32,738 nucleotides of DNA from positions 1 to 32,738 of the forward strand of contig JAZUAB010000067.1 of the NCBI GenBank assembly GCA_045637745.1, given 5' to 3'. Both the position numbers and the translations under genes were made by a program. The first letter of the stretch is position 1. Every line of letters begins with the position of its first letter. The stretch is from Candidatus Onthoplasma sp. Lineage in GTDB: Bacteria > Bacillota > Clostridia > Christensenellales > UBA1242. This document shows positions 7,670-22,036 of the stretch, piece after piece. Below the pieces are notes generated by a model. It searched no databases. It was not told the DNA's origin and saw only the letters and a list, made by a program, of their open reading frames with translations.

Positions 7670-8185
7670 ATGGAAATAAACAATATACAAATACGGTTAA
7701 ACAGTCTTTATCCTGAAATTGTGGAGGCTGATAACAACCCTCAAACAGTAGGAATTTTAAAAGACTTATTGTCATCGCGAGATGGAGAGATGTCTGGAAT
7801 AATGCAGTATATTTACCAGTCTAGGTTAGCGTTCAAGGTTGAACCTGAAGTTTCACAACTTCTAGAAGAAATCGCTGTAGTAGAAATGGAGCATATGGAG
7901 CTATTGATGGATGCAATTATTGCATTTGGCGGAACACCCAAATATGACAATGGCAGGGGTCAAATGTTTAATGCGGGGTATGTTAATTATACAACCAAAT
8001 TAAAAGATATGCTAGAAGCAAATATGGCCGGAGAAGATCGGTCGATATCGGATTATACCAGAGCGCAAAAGATGGTAAAAAATCAATCGTTAAAAGAATT
8101 ATTAAATAGAATTATTGAAGATGAAAAATTGCATTTAAATGCATTTAAAACAATATATAAAACGGTAAAATTTCTATCAGTATAA
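7670..8185 (+). CDS. Ferritin-like diiron/Mn-catalase-like protein (CotJC-related fold)
   Basis: GEMSGIMQYIYQ, EEIAVVEMEH and IIEDEKLH give two ExxH motifs. An AAGGAG Shine-Dalgarno (SD) precedes ATG 7670. Confidence 0.8.
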   Translation: MEINNIQIRLNSLYPEIVEADNNPQTVGILKDLLSSRDGEMSGIMQYIYQSRLAFKVEPEVSQLLEEIAVVEMEHMELLMDAIIAFGGTPKYDNGRGQMFNAGYVNYTTKLKDMLEANMAGEDRSISDYTRAQKMVKNQSLKELLNRIIEDEKLHLNAFKTIYKTVKFLSV

Positions 8186-13382: not shown

Positions 13383-14822
13383 ATGAAAAGTGCTAGTAAA
13401 ATATTAAACGAAATAAAACAAACACTGCACTTCAGCGCCGATTTTAAGGTGAGAGAAGTGCAGTTTTTTGACACGCAATTATTTATTGTGTATTTAGCAC
13501 CACTTACAGACAATAATTTATTAAATGAAAGTGTGATTAAGCCACTTATTGAATTTAATGAGAATTTGGATGGTGATGTTTGCAGTTTTATTCGGGAGCA
13601 AGTATTAGCCAATAACGAGGTGCAAGAGCAAAGTGATCAAAATCAGTTTGTTACCGAAATTTTAAAGGGGCGCGCAGGGATTATTATTGATAAAAGTGGC
13701 AAAATGCTCACTTGCGATGTTGAAAAAATTGTTGTACGCCCTATTCAAGAGCCACCAAACTCGGCTGTAATCAAGGGTCCACGCGAGGGGTTTAACGAAA
13801 GTATTAAATATAACTTATCGTTAATAAGGCACAAGCTTCCAACACCCAATTTAGTTATAGATTCGTTTTCTATAGGCAAATATACCAAGACTCAAGTTGC
13901 AGTAATATATCTTCAAGATATCGCTGACAAAAATGTGGTGAAAGAAATTGAACGCCGAATATCAAAAATTAATATCGACGGAGTGGTTGATAGTTATTAC
14001 ATTTCAGCATACCTGCAAAGTAAACCGAATTCGATATTTAAGCAGGTTGGCGACACTGAAAAACCAGATATACTGGTGAGCAAAATGCTAGAAGGGCGCA
14101 TAGGGATTGTGGTTGATGGCTCTCCAATAGTTCTTACATTGCCATTTATATTGGTTGAGGATTTGCAAAGTAGTGACGACTATTATTCACAACCCTTAAA
14201 AGTAGCGTTTTTACGAATTTTACGACTTATAGGTGTAGTGTTGGCGGTATTGTTGCCGGGAACATATGTGGCAATACAACTATATCATTACAAAATATTG
14301 CCAACCGAGTTTTTGATAACCATTATGGACACCACTCAGGGCATTCCGTTTACGCCGTTTACAGAGGTGTTGTTTATAGTATTATTATTTGAAATTTTAT
14401 ACGAAGCGAATTTGCATATGCCACAATATATGGGTATGGCGCTTAGCATTGTGGGGGCGTTGATATTGGGTGAAACGGCTGTAAATGCAGGGCTGGTTAG
14501 TCCACCTGCGGTTATGATTGTAGCGCTTAGTGGATTGACTTTTTATGTGGTGCCTAATCAAGCATCGCAATTTTCAATGTTGCGAATTTTGTATATATTT
14601 ATAGGTGCAACCCTTGGTCTGTTTGGAATATTGGCATTTAGTGTGTGGGTGGTATCATATTTAAGTAGTTTTGACACGTATGAGTCGGCTTACTTGGGGC
14701 CGGCAACACCATATATTAAAGGCGATATGAAGGACTTTTTGATAAAAGCACCATTGAATAAAATGAAAACTCGCCCAAGGAGTATTGCCAATAATAAAAG
14801 GAATAGGACAAGACAAAAATGA
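13383..14822 (+). CDS. gerKA: Spore germination receptor subunit A (GerA/GerKA family)
   Basis: EPPNSAVIKGPREGFNE, TEKPD, LEGRIGIVVDGSP, SIVGALILGETAVNAGLVSP. Confidence 0.93.
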   Translation: MKSASKILNEIKQTLHFSADFKVREVQFFDTQLFIVYLAPLTDNNLLNESVIKPLIEFNENLDGDVCSFIREQVLANNEVQEQSDQNQFVTEILKGRAGIIIDKSGKMLTCDVEKIVVRPIQEPPNSAVIKGPREGFNESIKYNLSLIRHKLPTPNLVIDSFSIGKYTKTQVAVIYLQDIADKNVVKEIERRISKINIDGVVDSYYISAYLQSKPNSIFKQVGDTEKPDILVSKMLEGRIGIVVDGSPIVLTLPFILVEDLQSSDDYYSQPLKVAFLRILRLIGVVLAVLLPGTYVAIQLYHYKILPTEFLITIMDTTQGIPFTPFTEVLFIVLLFEILYEANLHMPQYMGMALSIVGALILGETAVNAGLVSPPAVMIVALSGLTFYVVPNQASQFSMLRILYIFIGATLGLFGILAFSVWVVSYLSSFDTYESAYLGPATPYIKGDMKDFLIKAPLNKMKTRPRSIANNKRNRTRQK

Positions 14823-16015
14823 AAATGACATATAGACAAGCATCAATAATAATATTTTATATGCTGGTAGCGTTCAAGGTTTTATCGCTACCTAGTCTTG
14901 TGTATCAAACGTGCAAAAACGATGGTTATCTTGCGGTGTTTATAATGATGGTTGTGGATGCGATATTGTTATGGGCGTCATTAAAGATTTTAAAACAGGC
15001 TAAAGACAAGAATATATATGATTTTATAAAAGAACGTACTGGCAGTGTGGTGGCAAAAATATTTGTTATAGCAGTTACACTGATTCCATTAATTCATTTG
15101 GGAATAAAAACTAAAGGACTTGAATGGTTTTTGGTCAAAAACTTATATACCAAATTCGAATGGTTCCAATTTGCAATCCCTATTGCCCTTATTACCTGCT
15201 ATATGATATATAAGGGTGCAAGAAATATAGGTAGGGTTAGCGAATTCTTTGTTTGGATAATAATATTCGGCGTGATTGTAATTATCATTAAGGGTTTTGC
15301 ATCGGTAGATTTAACATTCTTTTTGCCGGTTTTAAGTAAAGGCATCAAACCGATATTTAAGGCAATATATGACTATTTAGCGTGGTTTGGTATAGGTGGT
15401 GAACTTTTATTATTTGCTGGATGTATTGACTTTAAAAAAGAGAAAAGATCAAGAGTGTTTTTGTATTCCGCCGTTGCTATAATTTTAGTGCAATTAGTGC
15501 TTTGGAGTTTTTATGGTGCTTATGGTATAATGGCTTCCACTCATAACTTTGCAATATCAGACATTAGTCAGATTTCAAATGCAAATATGGCGTTAGATGA
15601 GTTGTCTTGGCTGATTGTTACCGTATGGGCTATTGCTCAAATATTGCACGTGGGTATATATGGCTATTTGTTTTGCAGAGGCTTGCAACTGATATTTAAT
15701 ATTAAAAAGGATGCAGTTGCGACAATCATATTGTTTGTTTTAATTATTGTGTGGATTTTTTGGGGAGAACACACAATTGCACTTGAAAAATTATTCTTAC
15801 ACAAATCAATAGTATGGATAATGATTGTTGGTCAATATCTAGTGCCATTAATTATATTTGGATTAAGTTATATAAAAAATAAAAAAGAAAATGTTAAGTT
15901 TGTTGACAAGCCAAATAGTGCAAGTGGTGATGAAAAAGATGAAAATCTTAACTTAAAGCAAACAAATATAACGACAACCCAAAAAGGCAAAAGGGGGAAA
16001 TATGCAAAAGTTTAA
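14819..16015 (+). CDS. gerKB: Spore germination receptor subunit B (GerAB/KB, APC-fold membrane protein)
   Basis: About 10 hydrophobic segments and KGARNIGRVSE. ATGA overlap with the A subunit; lies between the A and C subunits. Confidence 0.85.
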   Translation: MKMTYRQASIIIFYMLVAFKVLSLPSLVYQTCKNDGYLAVFIMMVVDAILLWASLKILKQAKDKNIYDFIKERTGSVVAKIFVIAVTLIPLIHLGIKTKGLEWFLVKNLYTKFEWFQFAIPIALITCYMIYKGARNIGRVSEFFVWIIIFGVIVIIIKGFASVDLTFFLPVLSKGIKPIFKAIYDYLAWFGIGGELLLFAGCIDFKKEKRSRVFLYSAVAIILVQLVLWSFYGAYGIMASTHNFAISDISQISNANMALDELSWLIVTVWAIAQILHVGIYGYLFCRGLQLIFNIKKDAVATIILFVLIIVWIFWGEHTIALEKLFLHKSIVWIMIVGQYLVPLIIFGLSYIKNKKENVKFVDKPNSASGDEKDENLNLKQTNITTTQKGKRGKYAKV

Positions 16016-17261
16016 ACAAATATTTTCTCCGCGCAAAATGATTATTTGGGTAAGCATTTTTGTGCTAATAATATCTTTTCAATATACTAATCAGCCGGCA
16101 CAAAGCCAAACTCAAGCAATTGCCACCGCTTTAGCAGTGGAGCAAACCGAAGATAATATGATTGAAGTTAGTGCGGTAATTTTAACTCCAAGACCAGCAT
16201 CAACCAGCAAGCGAAAGGCATATACTGCAAATGGTTATGATATAACCAATGCAATTAACAATATATCTTTGCAGGTGGGCAAGCAAATTGGTTTTGGTCA
16301 ATGCGATATTATGGCTATTGGTGACAAATTATGTGAAACAAATGCCCTAAAGGCGCTGGATTATTTAACTAGAACTAAACGTGTTGGACGAAATGCTGTT
16401 TTACTTAACTTTTCGGGCAAAACTGAAGATTTTGCAAACTGTGTGGTGCAAATCAATGACAACCTTAGTTTAAAAGTATCCGAAATTATTAATTTTAACA
16501 AGGAATATATTGTGGCAACAGAAACCAATATTGAAAGTTTTTTCAAAGGTTACTACGGCGACCTAGGTGTATCGACTATGCCCAAAATTAAAGTAAGTGA
16601 AATAGAGTCTAGCAATGCAATACCAATTAAAGTAGATGATAGTTCTTCCGAAGGAGCAAGTGGTGGCGGTATTGACGAGGGTGCTAGTTCTAGTAGTGGG
16701 AAAAGTAAAGAATTGTATTTTACCAATGATGGAACAACATCAATATTTAGAGATGGTAAAAAGTTTACAGAAATTCAGCCAGAAGAAGTTAAATACATCA
16801 ACCTTTTGCAACCTGAAAATGTGTTGGGAACATTTATATTGGAAAATGTAAATAGCGATTTATTTGAAAATGCACGAGTTGTACTTGATTTAACAAATAA
16901 AGAAATGAAATATAAACTTAATTTTGATAACGGGAAACCCAGGATTAAATATGATATTCAATTATATATTATGATCGATGAAATCATTGAGGCAGAAAAA
17001 ACTGAAAATCTTCTTCACACCGAAAACTGGTTTGTAGATGACAGTGTGGTAAGTGGATTAAAAAACAAAGTTCAAGAAAACCTTGATATTGTGGTGCAAA
17101 AGTTAAAAGATGACAATATGGATATAATTGAAATTTATGACAAGTTCTATAAGTTTAAAAATAAAAAGTTTGAAAAATTCCTCAATTCACTTGAAAACAA
17201 AAAAGACTTTCTAAAAGATGTAATCTTTGACTATAAAATTACAATCCATAGTTCGTATTAA
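16002..17261 (+). CDS. gerKC: Spore germination receptor subunit C (Ger(x)C family)
   Basis: Third gene of the operon, overlapping the B subunit. AIATALAVE, ITNAINNI...KQIGFGQC...IG and a Gly/Ser-rich linker. Confidence 0.75.
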   Translation: MQKFKQIFSPRKMIIWVSIFVLIISFQYTNQPAQSQTQAIATALAVEQTEDNMIEVSAVILTPRPASTSKRKAYTANGYDITNAINNISLQVGKQIGFGQCDIMAIGDKLCETNALKALDYLTRTKRVGRNAVLLNFSGKTEDFANCVVQINDNLSLKVSEIINFNKEYIVATETNIESFFKGYYGDLGVSTMPKIKVSEIESSNAIPIKVDDSSSEGASGGGIDEGASSSSGKSKELYFTNDGTTSIFRDGKKFTEIQPEEVKYINLLQPENVLGTFILENVNSDLFENARVVLDLTNKEMKYKLNFDNGKPRIKYDIQLYIMIDEIIEAEKTENLLHTENWFVDDSVVSGLKNKVQENLDIVVQKLKDDNMDIIEIYDKFYKFKNKKFEKFLNSLENKKDFLKDVIFDYKITIHSSY

Positions 17262-17361: not shown

Positions 17362-18033
17362 ATGAAAAGGGTTTTTGGGGTTCGCGAAAAGGTATTTGCC
17401 TTGATATCTCTATTTATAATGGCTGTGCTATGTATTGTTAGATTTGCAATTGCATTTGCAAGAGAAAGCAATCTTATGAGCGAAATAACAAAGAACGAAT
17501 ATGTGGACGAAGCCATAAATTTTGGCGGTCTTAACTATATGAAAGTTATATTAATCGCAATGTTTTGTTTTGCTATATTATTATTGTTGTGTTCGTTCAT
17601 ATATTTATTTGTTAAGAGCGTAAATGCTAAAAGAGGAATTATATTGGTGGCAATGGCAGTATTGTTATTGGCTACGACATTCTTCTTTATAGGAAGGTTT
17701 ATTTGTGAGGATCATTATTCTAAAGCTATATGGCTTACAGATAATTATGAGAGAGAAGCCTTATGTGAGCTTGGCGAGGAATTTCTTCGAAATTCTATAT
17801 ATTTAATTTTCGGCTTAATTGCATCAATTGTAATGCATTTTGTGTCATTTAGTTTGTCAAATGACTATCTAGAAGACAAAGAAGACTCCGAAGAGAAGAA
17901 TGGGAATGATCAAACTACTATTTCAGAAGAAGAAAAAGTGTTGAGTGAAGAAATTAGCAAGCTAAAAGCAAAAATTAAAATTAAAGATTTGGAAAGCGAA
18001 TATTTAAAATTGAAATCACAGTTAGATGAATAA
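17362..18033 (+). CDS. Hypothetical membrane protein (4 TM segments, acidic coiled-coil tail)
   Basis: GGAGG SD, its own promoter and terminator, four hydrophobic segments. Confidence 0.75.
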   Translation: MKRVFGVREKVFALISLFIMAVLCIVRFAIAFARESNLMSEITKNEYVDEAINFGGLNYMKVILIAMFCFAILLLLCSFIYLFVKSVNAKRGIILVAMAVLLLATTFFFIGRFICEDHYSKAIWLTDNYEREALCELGEEFLRNSIYLIFGLIASIVMHFVSFSLSNDYLEDKEDSEEKNGNDQTTISEEEKVLSEEISKLKAKIKIKDLESEYLKLKSQLDE

Positions 18034-18040
18034 TAAATTT

Positions 18041-18070
18041 AAAAATAGTGGTTAATTGCCACTATTTTTT
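18041..18070 (+). terminator. Intrinsic terminator
   Basis: aaaaatagtgg...ccactatttttt. Confidence 0.8.
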
Positions 18071-18078
18071 AAAACTTG

Positions 18079-18107
18079 TTGACAAAAAGATTTGTTAGTG
18101 GTAATAT
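18079..18107 (+). promoter_or_regulatory. sigmaA promoter of the pheST leader
   Basis: TTGACA (18079-18084), 17 nt, TAATAT (18102-18107), with TG extension. Confidence 0.7.
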
Positions 18108-18118
18108 GTTATTAATGC

Positions 18119-18265
18119 GGAAGCAGAAATTTAATAAATTATAAGAAGTAATTTTAAAAAATTACGATTGATTAACATCAATCCTTGCTAATGCAAGTTT
18201 CTTATAATTTTGAATTACGTCAGATTATGTTAAATGTGCGTAAACGCCCGCTTACATAATCTTCC
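18119..18265 (+). ncRNA. Unassigned structured RNA module (four-way junction plus a second stem-loop) 5' of the T-box
   Basis: A 12-bp stem (18136-18147 with 18199-18210) encloses three perfect hairpins. Second stem agattatgt/acataatct (18222-18230 with 18254-18262). Confidence 0.55.
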
Positions 18266-18280
18266 TAGTATTATAAAGAC

Positions 18281-18591
18281 TATGAAGATGTATCAGTAGT
18301 TTGTTGTTTTCATAAAGGGAGAGTGGTCGCCGATTGAGAGCCACTTATGTTCAAACAATAAATGAATTTCAACATTGGAGTTGCTTTGCGGTAAAGCCAA
18401 TAGGTGTTAAGCAAAGACGGACAAAACCGTAAAAATGTAATGAGGTTTTAATAAATATGAAAATATGAAAGTGTGAAGACGCTACGCTTATGAAGTGTGC
18501 TGACGCACGTTGAGGAGTGTTTTATTAAAATAAATTTAGGTGGTACCACGAGTGATTTCGTCCTATTAGATTAATCTAGTAGGATTTTTTT
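18281..18591 (+). promoter_or_regulatory. T-box riboswitch with Phe (UUC) specifier
   Basis: Stem I with AGTA, AGGGAG and TGAGA motifs; GAATTTCA with TTC at 18368-18370; stem II ctttgc/gcaaag; IIA/B acgg/ccgt; T-box AATTTAGGTGGTACCACG (18533-18550); terminator tcctattaga-ttaa-tctagtagga followed by 7 T. Lies upstream of pheS. Confidence 0.93.
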
Positions 18592-18610
18592 GTTTTTAAA
18601 AGGAGTAATT

Positions 18611-19648
18611 ATGAAACAAGAAATTGAAAAAGTAAGTCTTGAATTTGATAGTGAGATTAAGGAAGTGTCAAGTCAAGCACAATTAGAAGAATTAAGAGTT
18701 AAATATCTAGGCAAAAGTGGTAAAATTACCGCTATTATGCCTATGATGAAAACTGTACCGAACGAGCAAAAGCGTGAAATTGGTATGCTTATCAACGAAT
18801 TAAAGAGTAAGATTGAAAATACGGTTGTTACTATGCAAGAGGAATTTAAAAACCGTGCAATTTTGGAAGAAATCAATAATGCAGAACGCATTGATATTAC
18901 ACTGCCTGTTGACACAAAGGTTGGTTCACTTCACCCACGAACAATAGTTCAAAAGCAAATCGAAGATGTTTTCGTATCTATGGGTTTTGTTGTAGAAGAA
19001 GGTTATGAAATAGAAACCGAATATAACAACTTTGACGCAGTAAACGTGCCAAGCAATCACCCAGCAAGAGATATGCAAGATACATTCTGGCTAAATAATG
19101 GCCAAGTGCTAAAAACTCACACATCAGCGGCTCAAAATCGCATTTTAAAGAAGTACAAAAACAATATGCCAATACGTGCCATATTCCCTGGACGTTGCTT
19201 TAGAAATGAAGAACTTGATGCTGGCCACGAAAACACATTCTTCCAACTTGAAGGCATTATCGTTGACGAAAACGTATCGGTTGCAAATTTGATTTATTTT
19301 ATGAAAGAAATGCTTTCACGCATATTCAAAAAGGAAGTTGATGTGCGTCTTCGTCCCGGTTTCTTCCCATTTGTGGAACCTGGCTTCGAAATGGATGTTA
19401 AATGCCCATATTGTGATGGTAAGGGTTGCAACGTATGCAAGCAAGGTGGCTGGATAGAACTTTGCCCATGCGGAATGATACACCCTAATGTATTAAAGGA
19501 AGCGGGCATTGATAGCGACAAGTTTAGCGGTTGTGCGTTTGGTCTTGGTCTTGACCGTATGGTTATGATGACAATGGGCTTTAAAGATATTCGTGACTTA
19601 AATAGTGGAAATCTTAAAATCTTCAAACAATTTAAGGTAGAGAGGTAA
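18611..19648 (+). CDS. pheS: Phenylalanine--tRNA ligase alpha subunit
   Basis: HPARDMQDTF, THTS, FPFVEP, AFGLGLDR. The AAAGGAG SD points to ATG 18611 rather than TTG 18590. Confidence 0.97.
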   Translation: MKQEIEKVSLEFDSEIKEVSSQAQLEELRVKYLGKSGKITAIMPMMKTVPNEQKREIGMLINELKSKIENTVVTMQEEFKNRAILEEINNAERIDITLPVDTKVGSLHPRTIVQKQIEDVFVSMGFVVEEGYEIETEYNNFDAVNVPSNHPARDMQDTFWLNNGQVLKTHTSAAQNRILKKYKNNMPIRAIFPGRCFRNEELDAGHENTFFQLEGIIVDENVSVANLIYFMKEMLSRIFKKEVDVRLRPGFFPFVEPGFEMDVKCPYCDGKGCNVCKQGGWIELCPCGMIHPNVLKEAGIDSDKFSGCAFGLGLDRMVMMTMGFKDIRDLNSGNLKIFKQFKVER

Positions 19649-19651
19649 TAT

Positions 19652-22036
19652 ATGTATATTTCATTAAATTGGATAAAGGAATTTGTTAATCTTGATGGAA
19701 TTGAGGTTGATGAAATTGTTAAACGTTTTGGTCTTGCTACTGCCGAAGTGGAAGGCGTGGAATATAAGGGGCAAAACATTTCAAATATTGTGGTGGCGGA
19801 AATTAAAAGTGTAGAAAACCACCCAGATAGTAAAAAATTGCACATTTTGCAAGTTGATGATGGGCTTGAAAACTTAACACAAGTGGTTTGTGGCGCGCCT
19901 AATGTGCGTGTTGGTATGAAAACCGCTTTTGCACGTGTTGGTGCGCAAGTGCAAGATATTAAAATTGGCAAAGCAAAGCTTGCAGGAATTGAAAGCTTTG
20001 GTATGTGCTGTGGCGAAGATGAAATTGGTATTGGTAGTGACGATTCTGGAATTGTTGACCTTGATCCAAGTTACAAAAACGGTACTGATATTAAAGAAAT
20101 CTTCCCTATTGATGACGTGATTATTGAAGTGGATAACAAGTCACTTACTAACCGCCCAGATCTTTGGGGACATTATGGCATTGCACGTGAATTTGCCACA
20201 ATTTTTAAACGTGATTTAAAACTAAATATTCCAAGAATAGATTTAAGCCAATACAACAATCTACCTAAATTAGATGTTAAGGTTGAAACACCTGATTGTT
20301 ATCGTTATAGTGCGTTGAGTGTGGATAATGTAACAGTAAAAAAATCACCACAAGTTATGAAGATTCGTTTAAATTATTGCGGAATGCGTGATATTAACTT
20401 GCTTGCCGATATGACTAACTATTTGATGTTGGAACTTGGTCAACCAATGCACGCTTTTGACAATAATATTGTTAAAGGGGTTCGTGTAATTACTACTAAG
20501 GAAAAAACTCCAATGCTTACACTAGAAGGCGAAGAACATATTGTAGACGAGAATTCTACACTTATTTGTGATGAAAGCTATACCCCAGTGGCAATTGCTG
20601 GTGTTAAAGGTGGGTTAAAGTCGGGCATTAGTAATGAAACCAATTCGTTATTGCTAGAAAGTGCCACATTTAGTCCTGTGGCAATTCGTAAAACTAGCCG
20701 TAAAATAGGCCTTATTACAGATGCAAGTTTAAGATACGAAAAATCACTTGATCCAGAAATGACCACTTTAGCAATTGAAAGGCTGGTATATCTATTAAAG
20801 AATATTGATAACGGAATTAAAGTAACTTCAAGTTTGACTGATTGTTATAATTATAAATATCCAACTAATACAATTAAATTAAGTGCCAACTTTATTAACA
20901 AGCGTGGCGGTGTAAATATTGCGGTTGAAGATATGGTTGATATTCTTGGTCGTCTTGGATTTAAGGTGCGTGGATTTAATGATGAACTTGAAATAACTGT
21001 TCCATCATGGCGTGCAACTAAAGACGTGTCAATTAAGGAAGATTTGGTAGAAGAAATTTTGCGTATGTATGGTTATGATAATATTAAGCCTGCCACTATG
21101 AATATGCCACTAAACCCAGTGGAGCAACTACCTATTCATACACTTGAATATAAAACCAAAAGATTGTTGGCTGAAAAGTACAATTTAAACGAACTTCATT
21201 CATATATCTGGAATTATAAAGAATTTAACGAAGATATGGGGATTAAACAAGATAGTTTTGTTGAGCTACTAGATAGTTCTAATAGTGGGCAAAGCGGACT
21301 TCGTAGTAAGTTGATGCCTACAATGTTAAAATTCTTCTATGAAAACAAAAATAATTTTGATGATATTAGTATTTTTGAAATTGCTCGTACCGCTGAAGGA
21401 TTGAACGAAGACAAATTAGCGGTTGAAAAGCGCAAACTTTCAATCGTACTTGCGTCAATGACAAAGAGTGAAAAGGAATTATATTTCACATTAAAACAAA
21501 TCGTTGAAGATTTAAGCGAACTTACACAAACCAAAGTTGAATATAAAGTTGATGGAAATGTAAGCGAATATTTACATCCGGTAAATTCTTGTAATCTACT
21601 AGCGAAAGGTGTTGTGCTTGGCGAAATGGGGGGGATTCACCCAAGTGTTGCTAAAAATCTTGACAAACGCTTTAATATTGTTGGGCTTGAAATTGACCTT
21701 GATGAAATGTTAAACCATGCATTAGGAATTGTTAATGCAAAACGCAATATGATTTCTAAATATCAAGCCAGTGACCTTGACTTTAACTTTGTTATGAGTA
21801 AAGATAGAGTTTATGGTGAGCTTGAATCTGCTTTAAGTGAATTCAGATGTAACTATCTTCTTGAAATTAAATTAAAAGATATCTATATCAATCAAGAAGT
21901 ATTGCCAGATAAAATTAGTTACACAATGGCAATAAAGGTCACTCCTAAGGATAGAACTTTGGAAGCAAGTGATATCGAAAAATTTAGCAAACGTCTAATA
22001 GATCATATGGCAAGTTTTGACATTGCTTTGAGATAA
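19652..22036 (+). CDS. pheT: Phenylalanine--tRNA ligase beta subunit
   Basis: ISLNWIKEF, VVCGAPN, TNRPDL, LGQPMHAFD, DLVEEILRMYGYDNI. Confidence 0.97.
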   Translation: MYISLNWIKEFVNLDGIEVDEIVKRFGLATAEVEGVEYKGQNISNIVVAEIKSVENHPDSKKLHILQVDDGLENLTQVVCGAPNVRVGMKTAFARVGAQVQDIKIGKAKLAGIESFGMCCGEDEIGIGSDDSGIVDLDPSYKNGTDIKEIFPIDDVIIEVDNKSLTNRPDLWGHYGIAREFATIFKRDLKLNIPRIDLSQYNNLPKLDVKVETPDCYRYSALSVDNVTVKKSPQVMKIRLNYCGMRDINLLADMTNYLMLELGQPMHAFDNNIVKGVRVITTKEKTPMLTLEGEEHIVDENSTLICDESYTPVAIAGVKGGLKSGISNETNSLLLESATFSPVAIRKTSRKIGLITDASLRYEKSLDPEMTTLAIERLVYLLKNIDNGIKVTSSLTDCYNYKYPTNTIKLSANFINKRGGVNIAVEDMVDILGRLGFKVRGFNDELEITVPSWRATKDVSIKEDLVEEILRMYGYDNIKPATMNMPLNPVEQLPIHTLEYKTKRLLAEKYNLNELHSYIWNYKEFNEDMGIKQDSFVELLDSSNSGQSGLRSKLMPTMLKFFYENKNNFDDISIFEIARTAEGLNEDKLAVEKRKLSIVLASMTKSEKELYFTLKQIVEDLSELTQTKVEYKVDGNVSEYLHPVNSCNLLAKGVVLGEMGGIHPSVAKNLDKRFNIVGLEIDLDEMLNHALGIVNAKRNMISKYQASDLDFNFVMSKDRVYGELESALSEFRCNYLLEIKLKDIYINQEVLPDKISYTMAIKVTPKDRTLEASDIEKFSKRLIDHMASFDIALR

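Follow-up and report, generated by a model that had tools for sequence, protein, structure and literature searches.

Between the promoter and the T-box of the pheST operon of a Candidatus Onthoplasma sp. genome lies a compact fold about the size of a transfer RNA (tRNA), and the question that this locus raises is what such a fold does there. The DNA analysed, referred to here as the window, is the whole stretch of 32,738 nucleotides (nt) at positions 1 to 32,738 of the forward strand of contig JAZUAB010000067.1 (assembly GCA_045637745.1). An earlier note on this window had taken the fold for a selected RNA that could act as a second sensor in tandem with the T-box, as a tRNA mimic bound by phenylalanyl-tRNA synthetase (PheRS) or as a 5' stabiliser, or that could be a small inserted repeat element. 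Our analysis supports the last of these proposals: the pheST fold is very probably one copy of a small, non-coding, non-autonomous and structured mobile repeat, the family of which is found in a genus of gut Clostridia with reduced genomes and, with a patchy distribution, in further families of that order.

The tRNA-sized fold ahead of the pheST T-box is real. The minimum-free-energy fold of positions 18114-18275 reaches -39.8 kcal/mol (ViennaRNA), against -22.5 +/- 3.4 kcal/mol for 200 dinucleotide shuffles of the same positions (z -5.1), none of which was as good. The 12-base-pair (bp) stem, the three perfect hairpins, the single junction base and the second stem described there are all present in the sequence and in the minimum-free-energy fold (Table 1), and the promoter was found where it had been placed, upstream of the T-box. 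The unit folds as an independent domain within the longer leader. The same fold is obtained for the unit as DNA (z -7.05) and on the opposite strand (z -7.48), so that energy cannot discriminate between the strands. Some details had to be revised. The bounds first given to the element, 18119-18265, are replaced by those of the repeat unit in Table 1, and a ggaag/cttcc helix proposed to close the whole domain is flanking leader sequence, present without the unit and seen only in the centroid fold. No Rfam family reached its gathering score anywhere in the window and none matched over the unit at E<=10, and ARAGORN predicted 0 genes in 17900-18700. Compared with the features of a tRNA cloverleaf, the loops of the unit are 4 nt long and not conserved, and its closing stem has 12 bp.

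Table 1. Coordinates of the repeat unit, its parts and the surrounding landmarks of the pheST locus (positions in the window).
Feature	Position	Strand	Remarks
Repeat unit, 144 nt	18134-18277	+	covariance models match end to end; R1 123.5 bits, E 1.5e-18; R2 124.4 bits
5' ATAAA	18134-18138	+	target or left copy of duplication
5' domain, four-way junction	18136-18210	+	minimum-free-energy fold
P1, 12 bp	18136-18147 with 18199-18210	+	
Hairpin 1	18148-18165	+	
Hairpin 2	18166-18183	+	
Hairpin 3	18184-18197	+	
Sole unpaired junction base	18198	+	
Conserved unpaired linker	18211-18221	+	TGAATTACGTC
3' hairpin	18222-18262	+	outer stem 18222-18230 with 18254-18262
Internal loop of 3' hairpin			TAAATG / CGCTT, nearly invariant
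Inner stem-loop of 3' hairpin	18237-18248		gcg-TAAA-cgc
Conserved 3' tail	18263-18277	+	TCCTAGTATTATAAA, ends ATAAA; family consensus TCCTAAATTATAAA
Terminator-like hairpin of upstream gene (open reading frame 17362-18033)	18041-18069	readable on both strands	11-pair stem, then T run
pheST promoter	18079-18107	+	TTGACA, 17-nt spacer, TAATAT, TG upstream of -10 box; score 10/12
T-box leader of pheST, RF00230	18273-18568	+	88.7 bits, E 7e-20, full model length
Second insertion, unrelated to repeat unit, in T-box variable region	18452-18522	+	insert of about 68 nt in Rfam alignment
T-box terminator hairpin and T run	18560-18585	+	
pheS	18611-19648	+	Pfam tRNA-synt_2d, 1.6e-86
pheT	19652-22036	+	Pfam B3_4, B5, tRNA_bind, FDX-ACB

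The copy entered the leader, between the pheST promoter and stem I of the T-box, after the species had split from its sisters. When the whole pheST leader was used as query against 40 related genomes, its promoter part (query 27-109) and its T-box part (query 234-581) were found directly adjoining on one contig of the sister genome G003, and they were contiguous in the same way in G022; the middle part of the query matched other places in these two genomes. G003 is close to the window genome (PheS 94.5% identical, leader 85%), and the promoter sequence is unchanged in both sisters. The three-way alignment shows a clean gap in which 139 nt, roughly 18140-18278, are absent from the G003 and G022 leaders, where about 165 extra nt had been estimated before. 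The empty site reads AATAAAT followed directly by ACTATGAAG (which begins ACTATG), and the filled site of the window reads AATAAAT-TATAAGAAG...TATTATAAAG-ACTATGAAG. Moreover, the leader search recovered 18 other loci of the genus; with the threshold at E<=0.01, a copy is present in none of them, and at least 17 of the 18 encode a PheS homologue with at least 36% identity. Both forms also exist in public gut metagenomes. The empty form is seen in a contig of run X1, which joins 18125 to 18273, and in a contig of run X4, which joins 18107 to 18275; the filled form is seen in a contig of run X2, which spans 18059-18362 unbroken, unit included. In run X1 the contig depth over 18187-18268 is 674-807, compared with 60-165 alongside. 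Among the sequencing runs, the highest share of sampled words found in any run was 0.16, and in one RNA library a contig covers the T-box part of a relative only, not the unit.

A further copy, of type B (the subtypes are described below), lies in the same pheST leader of another species of the genus, represented by genome G051, inside the -10 box of the promoter (L089 1501-1651, corresponding to G051:C12:132080-132230). It stands about 45 nt upstream of the site used in the window, and its tail (..GGTAATAT..) rebuilds a -10-like hexamer. This copy is an independent insertion, and two independent insertions in pheST leaders indicate that the elements do land in regulatory DNA.

The unit belongs to a dispersed family. 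A BLAST-type search matched its 3' half in 9 of 64 genomes of the genus. Two covariance models were used, R1 being made from 20 full aligned copies with the structure set by hand and R2 from 34 aligned matches; R1 gave 38 matches in 9 of the 64 genomes and R2 gave 49 in 12. The genus is placed in Christensenellales (NCBI taxonomy), and R2 matched 4 of 151 sampled genomes of this order, the window genome counted, with 17 matches in the other three. G170, a member of another family of the order, holds 14 copies. A motif scan of metagenomes returned 28 loci, among which 20 hold 26 model matches, and a pattern scan of one genome per species returned 27 loci. With the cutoff at E<=0.01, thirteen of the latter match the model, and the title of every record concerned is either Candidatus Onthoplasma or Clostridia bacterium; no pattern-scan locus in unrelated phyla reached this threshold. 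Among the remaining 14, 11 had no model match at all, and L114 and L121 gave E 0.17 and 0.65. At the last of the 14, the Onthoplasma locus L108, a strong copy is accompanied by a weak overlapping match on the opposite strand. The unit is thus a multicopy repeat, an outcome which the earlier note had itself listed among those that would refute its proposal.

The window genome (68% complete, 910 kb, 110 contigs) has 2 copies. The second one is diverged and was located at C2:4768-4905 by nhmmer and the covariance models; blastn within this genome returned, besides the window copy, only low-complexity partial matches. The closest relative of the pheST copy is the G003:C35 copy, which is 88% identical and whose site is empty in the window genome (contig C79). 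In a plasmid collection, blastn gave 9 records, all with <=22% query cover at E>=0.1, which is the chance level. Scans of viral contigs gave 0 contigs for the type-A motif and 30 loci for the type-B motif, none of them matching the model, and there is no sign in these scans that phages carry the family. In the literature searches that were made, no description of this repeat family was met with.

Around the G003:C35 copy, comparison of G003:C35:19272-22454 (L083) with contig C79 of the window genome (G000, about 21376-21430) shows that only the last 49 nt of the left flank match. The copy has the gene of a large serine recombinase about 1.5 kb upstream, and it may mark the border of an inserted island; we treated the proximity of the recombinase as coincidence.

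All copies share one plan, over a unit length of 129-163 nt. They start with (A/G)TAAA, followed by a long stem with GAAG at the end of its 5' arm, by three hairpins, by the 3' arm of the long stem and by a conserved unpaired linker. On the 3' side, a hairpin with a near-invariant internal loop (AAATG / CGCTT) and a small variable inner hairpin precedes a conserved tail that begins with CTTCC and ends in ATTATAAA or ATAATAT. This architecture of a stem closing three hairpins, a single-stranded linker, an internal-loop hairpin and a tail is fixed in the family. At least three subtypes of the 3' module can be told apart by sequence (A, B and C), and they are joined to similar 5' domains. The linker TGAATTACGTC is identical in 14 of 34 copies, and the other subtypes have their own conserved version. 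The sequences of the hairpin stems and loops vary freely among copies. The observation that all four loops are TAAN holds for the pheST copy and not across the family, in which only the loop of the last hairpin shows a preference (TAAA in 13 and CAAG in 7 of 34 copies).

Compensatory change keeps the stems of the family. In the alignment of 34 copies, 90.6% of cells hold standard pairs, compared with 34-45% when the partners are slid by 1-3 columns, and two-sided changes are seen in 38 of 46 pairs. Covariation scores 0.566 in this alignment and 0.194 in shuffles, and none of 500 shuffles came up to the observed value. In helices 1-4, which form the 5' domain, 71-96% of cells are paired and 28 of 30 pairs are doubly changed; in the 3' hairpin, the paired share of cells is 94.9% for helix 5 and 98% for helix 6. 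The result was replicated on 26 metagenome copies (93.5% paired, 40 of 46 pairs doubly changed). When RNAalifold was given a plain MAFFT alignment that had not been fitted to the model, it again returned the 3' hairpin, 10 of whose 16 pairs are doubly changed. Furthermore, when 47 copies were folded singly, 18 gave exactly [[][][]][] and 10 more gave [[][]][], with a median z of -3.7. In one sense, the earlier idea of a selected fold is borne out by the strong compensatory change, with the correction that selection acts on the fold of the repeat family and not on pheST.

The setting of the copies fits no single gene or pathway. All 34 genus copies examined are intergenic, according to crude calling of open reading frames, and the neighbouring genes are unrelated, both housekeeping and metabolic (galK/galT, adenine deaminase, MatE and TrkH are examples). 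Relative to the flanking genes, 14 copies are sense and 6 antisense, 3 stand between convergent and 5 between divergent genes, and 6 are of undetermined orientation, and both orientations occur in G170. In 9 of the 34 copies the stop codon of the upstream gene falls within the first 20 nt of the unit, which makes these copies part of a 3' untranslated region (UTR); in five of the nine, the stop is the TAA of the starting TAAA. The flanks have no conserved promoter and the unit has no terminator. No transposase was found next to copies among 18 proteins around the G170 copies and 53 open reading frames at the 20 metagenome loci. A resolvase lies 1.8 kb from one G170 copy and is also found at the orthologous metagenome locus, which we treated as coincidence.

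The ends of the unit give indications on how it might insert. Of 34 copies, 29 open with NTAAA as their first five bases, and none has TTTA on the 5' side. TAAA is asymmetric and its complement never stands there, so that the target sets the orientation of insertion. Three clean empty sites are available: AATAAAT in the pheS leader, and CTAAA and TTAAA at the sites of the G003:C35 and G054:C149 copies, both of which are cleanly empty in the window genome. The other filled/empty comparisons were too diverged to read. In the three clean comparisons, (A/T)TAAA stands on both sides of the unit. The two ends form imperfect inverted repeats (about 8 of 11 positions, ...TATAAGAAG at the 5' side and CTTCCTAAAT... 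at the 3' side, read by eye), and the 5' arm covaries with its internal P1 partner instead of staying fixed. Tandem arrays are regular: the nine junctions found in genomes all overlap by exactly 5 nt in model coordinates and are all head to tail, the final ATAAA of one copy being common to the next, and all five metagenome junctions inspected read TATAAACT.

One such array, at G170:C4:129748-130187, has three copies in direct tandem between two divergent genes, with five bases shared at each junction. For the copy in G045:C73, the corresponding site of the window genome, on contig C86 (about 7927-7955), is no clean empty site: it contains a short sequence like the 3' tail of the element, which may be either a deletion remnant or a tail-like target.

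Oriented insertion and head-to-tail arrays fit a site-specific recombinase or an HUH-type single-strand mechanism better than a DDE transposase, and a classical DDE enzyme that duplicates its target is less likely. It can be proposed that the unit inserts site- and orientation-specifically 3' of TAAA, that an enzyme acting in trans, a recombinase or an HUH-type nuclease, would recognise its folded and probably single-stranded form, and that the fold would be selected since only folded copies propagate. Provided that the unit is mobile, we are slightly inclined to accept insertion of this type. In the pheST leader, we take the unit to be a probable passenger: it folds alone, does not disturb the T-box, which is complete and begins at the end of the unit, and would be transcribed together with the remainder of the leader. 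Any effect on pheST expression is probably an incidental side effect. If transcription starts just after the -10 box, the unit would occupy about +22 to +165 of the leader. A role as 5' stabiliser is unlikely, as about 20 unpaired nt would precede the fold from this inferred start.

Several observations weigh against the reading of the unit as a mobile repeat inserted in this way. Genomes carry few copies: 1-11 within the genus, and 2 in the window genome at its 68% completeness. The search for a partner enzyme, which covered a few recombinase and transposase families in five element-rich genomes (85-98% complete; G003 88%), identified none. Y1_Tnp (PF01797) was found in none of the five, compared with 6 of 14 control genomes, and TnpB (PF07282) and DDE_Tnp_1 were likewise found in none of the five. 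Matches to rve occurred in two of the five, not beside copies, and RVT_1 (reverse transcriptase) in two of the five. Tyrosine recombinases were present in five of five genomes with the element and five of five without it, and are thus uninformative. At the 3' end, only 15 of 34 copies have an exact ATAAA as their last five bases, and the three empty sites fit a 4-5 bp duplication and a duplication-free insertion equally well. Both alignments behind the pair counts had been fitted to the model and are hence biased towards structure, a bias from which the plain MAFFT alignment and the single folds are free. Two findings hint weakly that the transcribed strand matters, namely the sense excess of 14:6 among copies between co-directional genes and, in paired cells, a surplus of G:T (88) compared with A:C (43); most of the latter stems from two fixed positions, and it therefore hints only weakly that one strand folds. 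Finally, the start of pheST transcription is deduced from the position of the -10 box.

The same enzyme search found a resolvase in four of the five element-rich genomes. G003, which has 11 copies, has a single tyrosine recombinase, which is Xer-like. A resemblance of positions 18225-18235 to the XerD arm of dif was set aside as chance. The AT-rich window genome contains the degenerate motif 39 times, and within the family these 11 positions covary as a stem.

Among the alternatives, a classical MITE (a miniature transposable element with inverted repeats), for which a DDE transposase in trans would bind the terminal inverted repeats and duplicate a 4-5 bp target, is in our opinion unlikely. 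In its favour are the imperfectly inverted ends, (A/T)TAAA on both sides in the three filled/empty comparisons and the rve-type transposase genes of two element-rich genomes. However, a DDE enzyme acting on two similar ends predicts neither the asymmetry of the 5' TAAA nor arrays that are exclusively head to tail, and the 3' ATAAA is often inexact. The structural constraint also bears on the interior stems and not just on the ends, and G003, for all its copies, gave no match to rve or DDE_Tnp_1 in a genome that is 88% complete. Nor was a parent insertion sequence seen, that is a long element with the same ends, in a search in which few transposase families were covered.

A composite alternative appears decidedly doubtful. 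In its first form, a host enzyme such as the Xer-like recombinase, and not a transposase of its own, would insert the folded single strand of a structure-dependent element 3' of TAAA, with site and orientation specified. In its second form, the conserved unpaired motifs would belong to a portable RNA module which binds a host protein; if so, the module in the pheST leader would tune synthetase expression.

It is slightly more improbable still that the unit serves the host at the RNA level, as a portable UTR module (an exonuclease barrier, a site for processing or for protein binding, or a small RNA) whose spread would be secondary. Covarying stems with a conserved linker, internal loop and tail are what functional RNAs show, the sense and G:T excesses point in the same direction, the nine copies that overlap a stop codon are 3' UTR sequence, and the analogous bcr1-3 repeats are described as often being parts of UTRs (PMC3446304). 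Against this, 6 of the 20 copies between co-directional genes are antisense and G170 has both orientations, the flanks have no conserved promoter, the unit has no terminator, and the opposite strand and the DNA form fold just as stably. Orthologous genes of sister species also manage without the unit, and its low copy number and patchy distribution (12 of 64 genus genomes) do not favour such a function.

A cis-regulatory RNA specific to pheST, be it an additional tandem sensor beside the T-box, for a ligand or a tRNA, or a PheRS-bound tRNA mimic for autoregulation, would suit a very stable, tRNA-sized four-way junction within the transcribed leader between promoter and T-box stem I, but it is hardly credible, as the unit is absent from this leader in G003, G022 and the 18 other genus loci, copies of the same architecture adjoin unrelated genes, their hairpin sequences and loops are free to differ, and neither ARAGORN nor Rfam recognised anything in it.

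The mobile, structured repeat that we favour can be compared with several known systems, of which the closest analogue appears, from its published description, to be bcr1, which belongs to the group A repeats (bcr1-bcr3) known from the Bacillus cereus group. It is described as a dispersed non-coding element of about 155 bp, whose distribution is not conserved among related strains, which is transcribed within UTRs and whose published fold consists of two independent stem-loops; in these reports it is described only from the B. cereus group, in the class Bacilli (PMC3184786, PMC6542083, PMC6199540, PMC3446304). It is flanked by the 5-bp direct repeat TTTAT, and its fold is kept by compensatory changes (PMC3184786, PMC6542083, PMC6199540). 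As far as these descriptions go, the two families are alike in length (142-157 nt for our unit), in being dispersed and non-coding, with a distribution that varies among relatives, and in a fold kept by compensatory change, and the ATAAA at the ends of our unit is the reverse complement of the TTTAT of bcr1. They differ in that the unit described here folds into a four-way junction followed by a separate hairpin rather than two independent stem-loops, belongs to Christensenellales in the class Clostridia and has lower copy numbers.

Bacterial MITEs and structured intergenic repeats, such as Correia/NEMIS, RUP, BOX, ERIC and RPE, are reviewed in PMC3184786. Like the family described here, they are small, non-coding and intergenic, vary in presence among relatives, form stable folds when transcribed, and can sit in leaders and alter neighbouring genes. 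In contrast, they are mostly one long hairpin of terminal inverted repeats, whereas our unit is branched and modular with covarying stems, has three exchangeable 3' subtypes and inserts in an orientation set by the asymmetric TAAA.

Elements derived from IS200/IS605 (PATEs) and the REPIN/RAYT system propagate via folded hairpins whose stems are kept by compensatory change, and insert in a specific orientation beside a short specific sequence without true duplication. Unlike in these systems, no Y1 transposase or TnpB was found in the five element-rich genomes; the left and right hairpins of the unit are dissimilar, and its cloverleaf is without counterpart there. As to the T-box (RF00230), the unit is co-transcribed with the T-box for phenylalanine and abuts it but lies outside it, since the model starts at 18273, at the end of the unit, and the T-box leaders of the sister genomes have no unit. 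We regard the family as a new one within the known class of small structured non-autonomous repeats.

For annotation, the consequence is that a false call is avoided: a tRNA-sized fold beside a T-box would here be a passenger, and neither a PheRS operator nor a riboswitch of a new type. As to repeats in general, the family is well defined and shows unusually clear covariation, and its hosts are uncultured Clostridia of the gut whose genomes measure about 1 Mb; it also has three exchangeable 3' modules, head-to-tail arrays and a strict, oriented TAAA target. No transposase gene adjoins the copies examined, and none of the few transposase families tested is common to the element-rich genomes, which is the same puzzle as that of bcr1 in the B. 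cereus group, and a second, unrelated host lineage beside that of bcr1 now makes comparison possible.

The remainder of the locus calls for a few comments. We accept region 18273-18568 as a T-box despite a score just below the gathering score of RF00230 (88.7 vs 93 bits); the match spans the full model, its terminator is present, and pheS and pheT follow downstream. Its specifier loop, read by eye from the Rfam alignment, is GAA-U-UUC-A, that is phenylalanine. The reduced score is probably due to the second insertion in its variable region (Table 1). This insert sits between stem III of the T-box and the antiterminator, and it is skipped by a DNA contig of run X4 and by a contig that run X20 gave from an RNA library. 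Within the window genome, fragments of the insert turn up again on contigs C102, C38, C7 and C12.

The PheS homologues of the genus (loci L010-L028) fall into two classes of identity to the PheS of the window, about 62-94% and about 37-39%, as if two diverged pheS lineages existed within one genus. Just upstream of the pheST operon, positions 14819-17261 hold spore germination genes, one of the GerAB permease type and one of the GerAC type, which are thus found in a genome of about 1 Mb.

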